DNA of 64,000 nt from Patescibacteria group bacterium (GTDB taxonomy: Bacteria; Patescibacteriota; Patescibacteriia; Buchananbacterales; UBA6539). The translations under genes were made by a program, and so were the position numbers. The notes below the pieces were generated by a model. That model ran no database searches, was not told the origin of the DNA, and worked only from the letters and a program-made list of their open reading frames with translations. The number at the start of each line of letters is the position of its first letter. The first letter of the stretch is position 1. This document shows, piece after piece, positions 48,559-48,961 of the stretch. The DNA lies in assembly GCA_028688055.1 (NCBI GenBank), contig JAQTYZ010000003.1, positions 1,191-65,190 on the forward strand, in the 5' to 3' direction.

Positions 48559-48624
48559 GGAGAGGTGGTCAAGTGGCCGAAAGCGCGTACCCCGCTAGGG
48601 CGGGGCGAGCTGCTAACGAGGTAT
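48559..48624 (+). pseudogene. partial 5' copy of tRNA-Ser (acceptor, D-arm and anticodon-loop region) with an extra 23-nt hairpin insert
   Basis: ggagaggtggtcaagtggccgaaagcgc and ctgctaacgaggtat duplicate the 5' half of the intact tRNA-Ser at 48872, with a few substitutions. CCCCGC-TAGG-GCGGGG is inserted where the anticodon-stem 5' strand should be. Confidence 0.6.
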
Positions 48625-48637
48625 TGATCGATCTACG

Positions 48638-48910
48638 ATGATAGCGGTTTATATTTTAAAGTCGGATCAGGGTAAGCATTATATCGGTTCCACCGTTGAT
48701 CTTGATGTAAGGTTGCGACGACATGCACTTCGAACGGCTGCTAAAACCACTCAGCAAGGGGTCTGGAAATTATGTTATTATCATCAATGTGACTCCATTG
48801 AAGACGCGCGTGCATTGGAAAAGAAGGTAAAATCGTTTAAGGGAGGAAATTCATTTAAAAAGATAATCAATGGAGAGGTGGCTGAGTGGCCGAAAGCGCC
48901 TCACTGCTAA
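48638..48910 (+). CDS. GIY-YIG nuclease-domain protein (YhbQ/URI-like); the ORF 3' end reads 39 nt into tRNA-Ser
   Basis: VYILKSDQGKHYIGSTVDLDVRLRRH...LCYYHQCDSIEDARALEKKVKSFKG matches the GIY-YIG catalytic core. The open frame continues through the first 39 nt of the tRNA before a TAA. Confidence 0.7.
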   Translation: MIAVYILKSDQGKHYIGSTVDLDVRLRRHALRTAAKTTQQGVWKLCYYHQCDSIEDARALEKKVKSFKGGNSFKKIINGEVAEWPKAPHC

Positions 48911-48961
48911 CGAGGTATCCCTTAACCGGGATCGCGGGTTCGAATCCCGCCCTCTCCGCCA
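48872..48961 (+). tRNA. tRNA-Ser (anticodon GCU), class II, CCA encoded
   Basis: GGAGAGG...AGTGGCCGAA...CTGCTAA anticodon loop (GCT), long variable hairpin ATCCCTTAACCGGGAT, T-arm CGCGGGTTCGAATCCCGCC, discriminator G, CCA. Confidence 0.88.

Follow-up and report, generated by a model that had tools for sequence, protein, structure and literature searches.

What is a gene for a small GIY-YIG nuclease doing between a broken copy of a tRNA gene and the intact gene itself, with its open reading frame (ORF) running into the tRNA? This question is raised by the tRNA-Ser(GCU) locus in a 64-kb stretch of DNA (hereafter the window; G+C content 42%) from a metagenome-assembled genome (MAG) of Patescibacteria, a group of the candidate phyla radiation (CPR). 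We propose that the locus is probably one copy of a widespread, homing-type selfish cassette of about 0.3 kb that resides in tRNA genes, mainly those of CPR/Patescibacteria. More than 90 independent contigs, mostly from these bacteria, share the same design: a partial tRNA copy carrying the hairpin YCCCGCC-N2-4-GGCGGGR, a gene for a nuclease of about 80-90 aa, and an intact tRNA. In the window, the locus consists of the following features.

48518 to 48546, forward strand: promoter-like site TTTACA-17-TATGAT with a TG-extended -10 box (10 of 12 matches in a consensus scan)
48559 to 48586, forward strand: segment A of the partial tRNA copy, equivalent to tRNA-Ser positions 1-28 and identical to 48872-48899 at 25 of 28 positions
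48587 to 48609, forward strand: 23-nt insert with the family hairpin CCCCGC-TAGG-GCGGGG (48590-48605), read from the sequence
48610 to 48624, forward strand: segment B of the partial tRNA copy, equivalent to tRNA positions 33-47 and identical to 48904-48918 at 15 of 15 positions
48625 to 48637, forward strand: 13-nt spacer from the partial copy to the start codon, with no similarity to the tRNA
48638 to 48910, forward strand: gene for a 90-aa minimal GIY-YIG nuclease (Pfam PF01541, E = 3.2e-14)
48872 to 48961, forward strand: intact tRNA-Ser(GCU) (ARAGORN; Rfam tRNA, 57.9 bits)

The half-copy starts at 48559, 313 nt upstream of the tRNA-Ser, and its two collinear matches to the tRNA had blastn E-values of 9e-5 and 0.056 within the window. 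Segment A spans the 5' strand of the acceptor stem and the D arm, with three substitutions that disrupt the D stem, while segment B spans the anticodon loop and the 3' strand of the anticodon stem. Between them, the 23-nt insert stands in for four nucleotides (CTCA) that form the 5' strand of the anticodon stem in the intact gene. The GAGG of segment B, now unpaired, is a possible ribosome-binding site, though it lies rather far from the ATG. At its other end, the ORF shares its final 39 nt (48872-48910, stop codon included) with positions 1-39 of the tRNA. Residues 79-90 of the nuclease and its stop codon are thus encoded by the tRNA gene, the TAA being U36-A37-A38 of the anticodon loop. These results agree with the initial annotation of the locus, which had described a tRNA-Ser 5' half duplicated about 310 nt upstream, a 23-nt hairpin in place of an anticodon-stem strand, and a compact GIY-YIG nuclease whose frame continues for 39 nt into the tRNA. 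The window contains exactly one hairpin of this kind and no further copy of it or of the ORF.

It had also been considered that the upstream fragment might score as an independent functional tRNA. The copy has no variable arm, T arm or 3' acceptor strand. When both copies were run through the tRNA finders, the downstream one was called and the upstream one was not: ARAGORN made no tRNA call there, and Rfam gave no tRNA match even at E ≤ 10. We therefore rejected an independent upstream tRNA. The intact tRNA-Ser(GCU) is presumably both the target and the host gene of the cassette, moved 313 nt downstream of its native promoter.

MAG assemblies such as that of the window can be misjoined at repeats, and Logan contigs break inside this tRNA. 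That the arrangement is a chance similarity or an assembly artefact is nevertheless almost certainly wrong. The whole arrangement recurred in L098, an independent Logan assembly of this organism, which shows that it is not an assembly artefact. The presence of the same arrangement in dozens of unrelated contigs excludes chance, and the two E-values given above for the window likewise argue against it.

L098 was 100% identical to the window across 3761 bp apart from 11 differences, all of them in the variable arm of the tRNA-Ser. The differing stretch reads TCCCTTAACCGGGA in the window (48918-48931) and AGGGGTAAAACCCT in L098 (3720-3733), with the stem strands swapped. It sits directly 3' of the duplicated segment, and the L098 contig ends at the end of the tRNA. 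Possibly, alleles were truly swapped at the edge of the cassette; the difference may also be a de Bruijn-graph chimera formed via the 46-nt tRNA 5' half that different species share.

A profile search for the nuclease yielded 1552 proteins at E ≤ 1e-3. A scan of GTDB, with one genome per species, recovered 11 ORF loci (L002-L011 and L013), and all 11 showed the order partial copy with one or two GC-rich hairpins, short spacer, ORF and intact tRNA. Loci L002-L010 were at tRNA-Ser(GCU), L011 was at tRNA-Arg(GCG), and L013 was at tRNA-Ser(GGA). The partial copy of L011 carried two hairpins in the D loop. In L013, which comes from a non-CPR Neomarinimicrobiota MAG, the copy covered positions 1-78, and its T loop contained a 43-nt insert rich in hairpins. 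When metagenomes were scanned with the motif KSYKGGNA, tblastn confirmed 180 loci, of which 80 were kept. These fell into the following groups.

Forward form, in which an intact tRNA on the same strand starts no more than about 45 nt past the end of the conserved domain: 55 of 80 loci
Mirror form, in which the intact tRNA ends 2-20 nt ahead of the start codon: 15 of 80 loci
No adjacent tRNA called, mostly at contig ends or in tandem ORFs: 10 of 80 loci

Mirror-form loci have the order intact tRNA, ORF and 3' partial copy of the same tRNA. An ORF, a duplicated gene end and an intact gene, co-oriented and abutting as in known mobile ORFs, were thus found at the window locus and at 70 of the 80 loci kept from the metagenomes. 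The non-coding part of each cassette amounted to 13-80 nt. Around 20 tRNA species were occupied, including those for Ser (GCU, UGA, GGA, CGA), Gly (GCC, UCC, CCC), Tyr, Thr, His, Val and Asp, and further those for Gln, Glu, Pro (UGG, GGG, CGG) and Arg. The hosts included many CPR classes as well as Neomarinimicrobiota, Omnitrophica and one MAG of the Planctomycetes-Verrucomicrobia-Chlamydiae (PVC) group, and most contigs had no host taxonomy.

We determined how the ORFs were related with a neighbour-joining tree, in which they clustered largely by target tRNA with few switches. The partial copies were compared with their own and with foreign tRNAs in an ungapped k-mer test of the Ser-GCU loci. 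At positions 1-13, the copy was closer to its own adjoining tRNA than to same-anticodon tRNAs elsewhere in 18 loci, with the reverse in 3; at positions 18-29, the numbers were 16 and 5. This resemblance to the own tRNA suggests a local origin of the copy, co-transfer or gene conversion.

We then compared the locus with the orthologous site in relatives. In L015, a member of the Buchananbacteria, the gene order is that of the window: a 199-aa membrane protein, ComF, tRNA-Ser(GCU), DUF5673 and tRNA-Arg(GCG). L015 has no cassette, and a TTTACA is also present after its comF stop codon. Two nearer relatives (L099 and L100) were found via the neighbouring ComF, which is 48% identical at the amino acid level, with flanks of 78-81% nucleotide identity. 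In these, the promoter block after comF (TTTACA...TATGAT atcagagttttt) leads directly into the 5' end of the tRNA-Ser, which is intact as far as the contig reads, and no hairpin is found. The L099/L100 site is therefore probably empty. At the orthologous site, the cassette is thus present in the window and L098, absent from L015 and probably absent from L099/L100. The comparison with L099/L100 indicates that the half-copy of the window sits where the native 5' end of the tRNA should be, and that the intact tRNA was displaced downstream. Although the half-copy is at the native position, the tRNA 5' halves are too conserved for either end to be assigned as the foreign one. According to the initial annotation, a small homing or mobile nuclease cassette had targeted the tRNA gene and regenerated or duplicated its 5' portion. 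The many tRNA targets and lineages, the empty site in L015, the tRNA 5' end of L099/L100 and the tandem arrays described below strongly support this proposal.

The reciprocal situation was found at the syntenic tRNA-Arg(GCG) (window 49510-49586), which has no cassette in the window and is occupied in L011 (3917-4330), a member of the Paceibacteria. There, the cassette encodes a distantly related GIY-YIG protein and has two hairpins that differ in sequence. In both the window and L011, the tRNA-Arg is preceded by a DUF5673 gene. About 150 nt downstream of this tRNA-Arg(GCG), L011 also has a fragment (4478-4497) that resembles a T arm plus 3' end (aggttcctactggaagcaca), with GC-rich hairpin-prone sequence in between. 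The fragment may be the remnant of a mirror-form event.

Tandem cassettes were found in L017, L095 and L056. L017 has two ORFs, with a hairpin copy before each, and a decayed third copy after the tRNA-Ser (3660-3720). Tandem hairpin-bearing 5' copies with no ORF precede the intact tRNA in L021 (950-1075, Thr) and in L025 (935-1072, Gly, with a 68-nt unit). The ORF-less copies in L017, L021 and L025 look like remnants of earlier cassette events. L059 and L064, which were considered as a recent filled/empty pair, were rejected as such, with their break lying about 280 nt outside the cassette.

Other arrangements were found in two tRNA-Pro loci. The tRNA-Pro cluster of L056 (1650-2750) contains two GIY-YIG ORFs and five Pro copies with the hairpin in place of the D arm, three of which are full-length and were called as tRNAs by both ARAGORN and Rfam. 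L094 (398-1601) has the order 5' tRNA-Pro(GGG) copy, GIY-YIG ORF, intact tRNA-Pro, 191-aa ORF and near-full-length arm-swapped 3' copy. The 191-aa ORF is unrelated and matched no Pfam family. The hairpin-bearing copies bracket this larger unit, and such copies may also carry other cargo.

These patterns could also arise if the nuclease took no part in the movement of the cassette. DNA taken up from outside, or an excised circle of ORF and tRNA fragment, would then integrate passively by RecA-type (Campbell-like) recombination in the tRNA homology, the forward form resulting from a crossover 5' of the hairpin and the mirror form from one 3' of it. The nuclease would have some other use, such as addiction or defence, or no use at all. 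Single crossovers between a tRNA and a tRNA fragment with the hairpin would readily produce the two orientations as well as the tandem arrays, and direct repeats flank the ORF as in Campbell integration. A ComF competence gene lies next door, and CPR bacteria are generally thought to take up DNA. Furthermore, the problem of a nuclease that would cleave its own locus disappears. On the other hand, the uninterrupted homology is just 9-28 nt, which is poor for RecA, and the catalytic residues are conserved across the family, suggesting that nuclease activity is under selection. The association of one nuclease fold with every cassette would also need a reason, and no circular or free form was seen. 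We consider passive integration unlikely.

The hairpin is present in nearly all partial copies. Its strict core motif was present in 54 of the 68 loci with at least 100 nt of flank, and 85 unique instances were listed. Within 200-260 nt of the ORFs, its density was 2.70 per kb, compared to 0.046 per kb in the other 324 kb fetched, a 58-fold difference. The few distant matches were again mostly within tRNA-like copies. We tabulated the next outward pair in 86 unique hairpins anchored on the core alone, and found C:G in 51, T:A in 32, T:G in 2 and A:T in 1, with no unpaired case among the 86. Both main types occurred within single ORF clades. Since the outer positions can always pair, pairing is maintained, whether this serves a hairpin or a symmetric duplex site. 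Where in the partial copy the hairpin sits depended on the tRNA.

Gly, Thr, His, Val, Asp and Pro-GGG: hairpin as an exact swap for the anticodon arm (27-43), with positions 26 and 44 kept
Pro-UGG and Pro-CGG: hairpin in place of the D arm
Ser, Tyr and Gln: hairpin within the D loop, with flanks CTTG and TGAAG
Subgroup of the window (the window locus, L001, L003, L053, L081 and L088): hairpin replacing the 5' strand of the anticodon stem

Up to three hairpins were found in one copy (L028). Full-length, arm-swapped tRNA look-alikes were present where spare tRNAs exist; those in L056 scored 37-50 bits with Rfam, compared to 64-66 bits for the intact tRNAs.

The upstream copy, which the initial annotation had called degenerate, is non-functional but not a mere decaying scar, as its hairpin is conserved throughout the family and shows covarying pairs. 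It had further been argued that a conserved upstream element in related genomes would speak against recent mobility. This applies in part, since the hairpin is such a conserved element. In view of the empty sites and the variety of targets, we do not count it against mobility.

Several functions of the hairpin were considered and rejected. It is not an intrinsic terminator, as no T-run follows it; a look-alike in L011 is the rpsT terminator. Neither is it a genome-wide repeat such as a repetitive extragenic palindrome, an uptake sequence or a miniature inverted-repeat transposable element, given its low density away from the cassettes and the location of most of those matches in tRNA copies. 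The hairpin loop sequences showed no strand bias and had symmetric dinucleotides. A comparison of wobble pairs and loop bias aimed at separating action as RNA from action as DNA gave T:G 2 versus C:A 0 and did not discriminate between the two. The window also contains a strong bidirectional terminator-like hairpin just past the tRNA-Arg(GCG) (49598-49626; 11 pairs, AAAACCGCCCC...GGGGCGGTTTT). It is GC-rich and has T-runs, and its sequence is unlike that of the cassette hairpin.

The regularity of the hairpin raises the question of whether the hairpin itself, 16-17 nt long, is the homing unit or the handle of the nuclease, and whether structure or nucleic acid guides the targeting. The nuclease might read the cloverleaf-like fold that the displaced DNA strand of a transcribed tRNA gene adopts and cut at the base of an arm, after which gap repair would install the hairpin. 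Alternatively, a transcript of hairpin plus tRNA fragment would direct the protein to matching tRNA genes. This would suit the precise, equal-length swap of the hairpin for the anticodon arm (27-43) or the D arm, the accumulation of several hairpins at different loops of one copy, and the full-length copies with only an arm swapped, such as those in L056. It would also suit a protein with no DNA-binding domain whose nearest solved relatives include the structure-specific Slx1 and UvrC, and the use of many different tRNAs by very similar proteins. The case is, however, wholly inferential, and we know of no precedent for a guided or cloverleaf-reading GIY-YIG enzyme. The arm-precise swaps could be the sole surviving variants, 80-90 aa is very small for binding a guide, and the self-targeting problem remains. 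As a targeting principle, we find it distinctly unlikely that the hairpin is the homing unit or the handle. That a bare GIY-YIG domain finds tRNA genes through a displaced-strand cloverleaf or through an adjacent nucleic acid of hairpin plus tRNA fragment, making the hairpin a miniature intron-like homing unit, seems to us rather unlikely.

We next looked at the nuclease. The window protein matched PF01541 with 53.4 bits (cutoff 22.6). Among 62 homologues, Y5, Y15, G17, R25, H29 and E61 were invariant and N71 was at least 90% conserved, which represents the full GIY-YIG catalytic set. The AlphaFold2 model (predicted local distance difference test score, pLDDT, 78) contained the elements E3-9, E14-19, H22-31, E43-50 and H54-66, forming a beta-beta-alpha-beta-alpha fold, while the tail past residue 78 was modelled at low confidence. 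The nearest structures found by Foldseek were UPF0213 protein BH0048 (1ZG2), the Slx1 nuclease domain (6SEH) and the N-terminal domain of UvrC (1YD6), with modest similarity (template modelling score, TM, ~0.55). BH0048 was also matched by phmmer, at E = 1.4e-4. No curated model attained its cutoff in an NCBIfam scan of the window protein, and TIGR01453 (group I intron endonuclease) reached 24.5 bits against a cutoff of 56, over residues 3-37 only. The whole protein consists of a catalytic domain of about 78 aa and the tRNA-encoded tail, and has no DNA-binding module of the kind found in I-TevI and the Seg enzymes. The seven closest homologues were 52-63% identical, and all seven end in INGE[LV]AEW[SP]KA..C, which is the translated 5' end of tRNA-Ser. 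Two distant members from the GTDB scan, L011 and L013, had 32% identity.

Database gene calls of the family often have spurious N- or C-terminal extensions that are translations of the hairpin-bearing tRNA copies (P0003, P0007, P0009, P0026, P0031, P0093, P0096, P0101, P0114 and others). Examples are '..HPAAAGR..' and '..ELAPPRRGEV..'; MAEWSKALHPAAAGRAANEVG or ...ELAPPGRGEVES. Judging from the translations, these extensions are a systematic annotation artefact.

How the nuclease may be expressed is suggested by the promoter-like site. It precedes the half-copy, and the consensus scan found no second forward-strand site ahead of the tRNA-Ser. We presume that it is the native tRNA-Ser promoter, now driving the half-copy, the ORF and the tRNA together. 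Of the 66 forward loci, those with the ORF upstream of the tRNA, 50 lack a stop codon ahead of the tRNA, so that the reading frame ends within it, usually at U8-A9-G10, at position 19 or, for Ser-GCU, at position 37. In the remaining 16, the stop codon lies no more than 22 nt before the tRNA. Coupling of the nuclease to tRNA transcription had been put forward as an alternative to a mobile cassette. Considering the single promoter-like site and the many ORFs with no stop before the tRNA, we suggest that this coupling is probably real as well, and that it does not compete with mobility.

The same observations would fit a domesticated or host gene, that is, a small repair or processing nuclease that is co-transcribed with tRNAs and inherited mainly vertically. 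Its tRNA-like leader or trailer and the hairpin would then be regulatory RNA, acting on stability, on translation or on an RNase P-dependent removal of the stop codon. The sole promoter-like site is that of the tRNA, and with the stop codons inside the tRNA, 5' processing of the tRNA would decide whether the ORF is complete. The hairpin always swaps whole arms or sits in loops, as if the RNA fold mattered. The ORF is under purifying selection, and the nearest folds, UPF0213, UvrC and Slx1, belong to cellular nucleases. However, a host gene accounts neither for the use of about 20 different tRNAs across genomes, nor for the syntenic genomes that lack the cassette and the tandem and ORF-less hairpin copies, nor for the need of a partial tRNA duplicate. 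The loops are without strand bias, and folding of the window leader compared to shuffled sequence gave z = 0.1, which does not support a larger structured leader RNA. We therefore regard a vertically inherited host gene as very unlikely.

We return to the homing-type cassette, for which we propose the following course of events. The nuclease would break or nick a tRNA gene that has no cassette, and repair would copy from an allele that has one, the homology arms being provided by the partial copy on the distal side and by the intact tRNA on the proximal side. In this way the cassette would be copied in while a complete tRNA is always regenerated, giving the order spare copy, ORF and intact tRNA or the reverse order. 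In the window, the original 5' end behind the native promoter would be the half-copy at 48559, with the ORF and a fresh 5' half added downstream. Expression of the ORF would probably be by read-through from the tRNA promoter, terminating inside the tRNA. We can further imagine that an RNase P cut at 48872 strips the stop codon from the message and might keep the nuclease level low. The hairpin would act as an intron-like disruption of the nuclease site in the spare copy, and would also shorten the direct repeats able to recombine the ORF out. Such a homing model accounts for the abutment of ORF and tRNA, the two orientations, the many targets and the empty sites. We propose that tandem arrays arise because the retained tRNA is cut again and repaired over a long tract, and that the arm-swapped full-length copies arise because conversion over a short tract takes place where a spare tRNA exists.

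Several points weigh against this proposal. The nuclease is a bare catalytic domain, unlike the characterised GIY-YIG homing enzymes, and with no DNA-binding module it has no obvious way to recognise about 20 targets. Since the intact tRNA next to the ORF does not differ from an empty target, the element would be expected to cut itself under simple homing; low expression or faithful repair from the sister are the only explanations we can offer for how this would be avoided. The uniform hairpin sequence at many positions is unexpected if its role is purely one of disruption, and the distal homology arms are only 9-28 nt. The L099/L100 contig stops 38 nt into the tRNA, no filled/empty pair was found among the near-identical contigs fetched, and IMG/VR viral contigs contained no member of the family, leaving no vector in sight. 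Our observations cover the anatomy, the family and its target range, the conserved hairpin, the empty site and the tandem arrays, while nuclease activity, the cleavage site, copying by repair, transcription and the role of the hairpin are inferred.

Upstream of comF (window 44300-47830), there are genes for PrgI-like, TraC-like and TraG/VirB4-like P-loop (DUF87/AAA_10) proteins. These resemble type IV secretion or conjugation genes, and are also present in relatives, as seen in the gene tables of L098 and L099.

Among known systems, the closest in logic are the mobile ORFs of fungal mitochondria. In Allomyces (atp6) and Glomus (atp6, atp9, cox2, nad3), these carry a replacement gene terminus, while the native end is left as an unexpressed remnant (PMC3630166). 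In those hybrids, the endonuclease is stated to have been shown biochemically to drive the mobility of the element (PMC3630166). Like the cassette, they combine a free-standing endonuclease ORF (GIY-YIG in atp9) in an essential gene with a fresh gene end and a dead duplicate alongside. Often, the ORF shares the reading frame of the host gene and is transcribed together with it, and the logic fits both forward and mirror cassettes. The fungal targets are, however, protein-coding organellar genes, in which synonymous changes can destroy the nuclease site, whereas a bacterial tRNA has no such freedom. The cassette also differs in that its dead duplicate has a conserved GC hairpin and its nuclease is a bare domain of 80-90 aa.

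SegB reportedly has a little over 200 aa with a DNA-binding part, and is said to be phage-borne and to lie between intact genes, with no partial tRNA duplicate or hairpin. It is a GIY-YIG homing enzyme in the tRNA gene cluster of T4 (PMC2330249). SegB cleaves the tRNA-gene region of a related SegB-free genome and, through repair of the break, is passed on along with its flanks (PMC2330249). The same hosts and target class as those of the cassette are used by group I introns, which occur in tRNA genes of Patescibacteria (PMC13011429). That report mentions neither GIY-YIG genes nor duplications (PMC13011429). Group I introns interrupt the tRNA and splice out, but the tRNA of the cassette is uninterrupted. 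A group I intron or other RNA family in the cassette was rejected, since Rfam found only tRNAs, both at E ≤ 10 for the window and at the gathering threshold for 11 loci.

The closest relatives of the nuclease in sequence and fold, the UPF0213/YhbQ-like BH0048, Slx1 and UvrC, share its catalytic Tyr, Tyr, Arg, His, Glu and Asn. Slx1 and UvrC act with partner domains, unlike the window protein. To our knowledge, none of these domains has been reported as linked to tRNAs or flanked by gene duplicates. Integrase-type islands and prophages in tRNA genes span kilobases, encode a tyrosine integrase and duplicate the 3' part of the tRNA as plain att sites. Islands and cassette are alike in that a direct repeat of part of the tRNA brackets the insert and the sequence of the element regenerates the tRNA. 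In contrast, the cassette has no integrase, its insert is 0.3 kb, and its repeat, which is of the 5' part in the window, is broken by a hairpin. We rejected an integrase-type island, the 90-aa nuclease being the sole gene between the repeats. Short, palindromic GC-rich hairpin elements are also known from AT-rich organelle genomes (sponge mitochondria, the GC clusters of yeast and the double-hairpin elements of Allomyces), where they appear to insert repeatedly and are scattered between genes. The cassette hairpin is instead nearly confined to tRNA-derived copies beside one nuclease family, and it makes exact arm swaps.

In full-text searches of the literature, we found no account of GIY-YIG genes with hairpin-bearing partial tRNA duplicates at their flanks. 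The general strategy of a mobile endonuclease ORF that brings a spare gene end is already known from fungal mitochondria. What is new is that a tRNA gene is the target, that the nuclease is minimal and that a hairpin swaps for tRNA arms. Were targeting to rely on the hairpin or on a DNA cloverleaf, this would be categorically new, namely a class of guided mobile elements that could be retargeted to any tRNA by changing the flanking tRNA fragment. A compact retargetable nuclease would appeal to genome engineers.

The cassettes also have consequences for sequence annotation. Partial or arm-swapped look-alikes can be miscalled by tRNA finders, as were the Pro copies of L056 by ARAGORN and Rfam. 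Gene callers yield the spurious ORF extensions described above, and assemblies of streamlined genomes break at the cassette repeats.

If our proposal is correct, a family of the smallest known endonuclease-bearing selfish elements (~0.3 kb) has been overlooked in the tRNA genes of CPR bacteria, where its members would be annotated merely as 'GIY-YIG nuclease family protein'. It raises the question of how a domain with no DNA-binding module serves about 20 tRNA targets, and what the invariant hairpin does. Such an element would show an intron-free route of invasion into an essential, non-degenerate RNA gene, in which the invader brings a spare part of the gene along.

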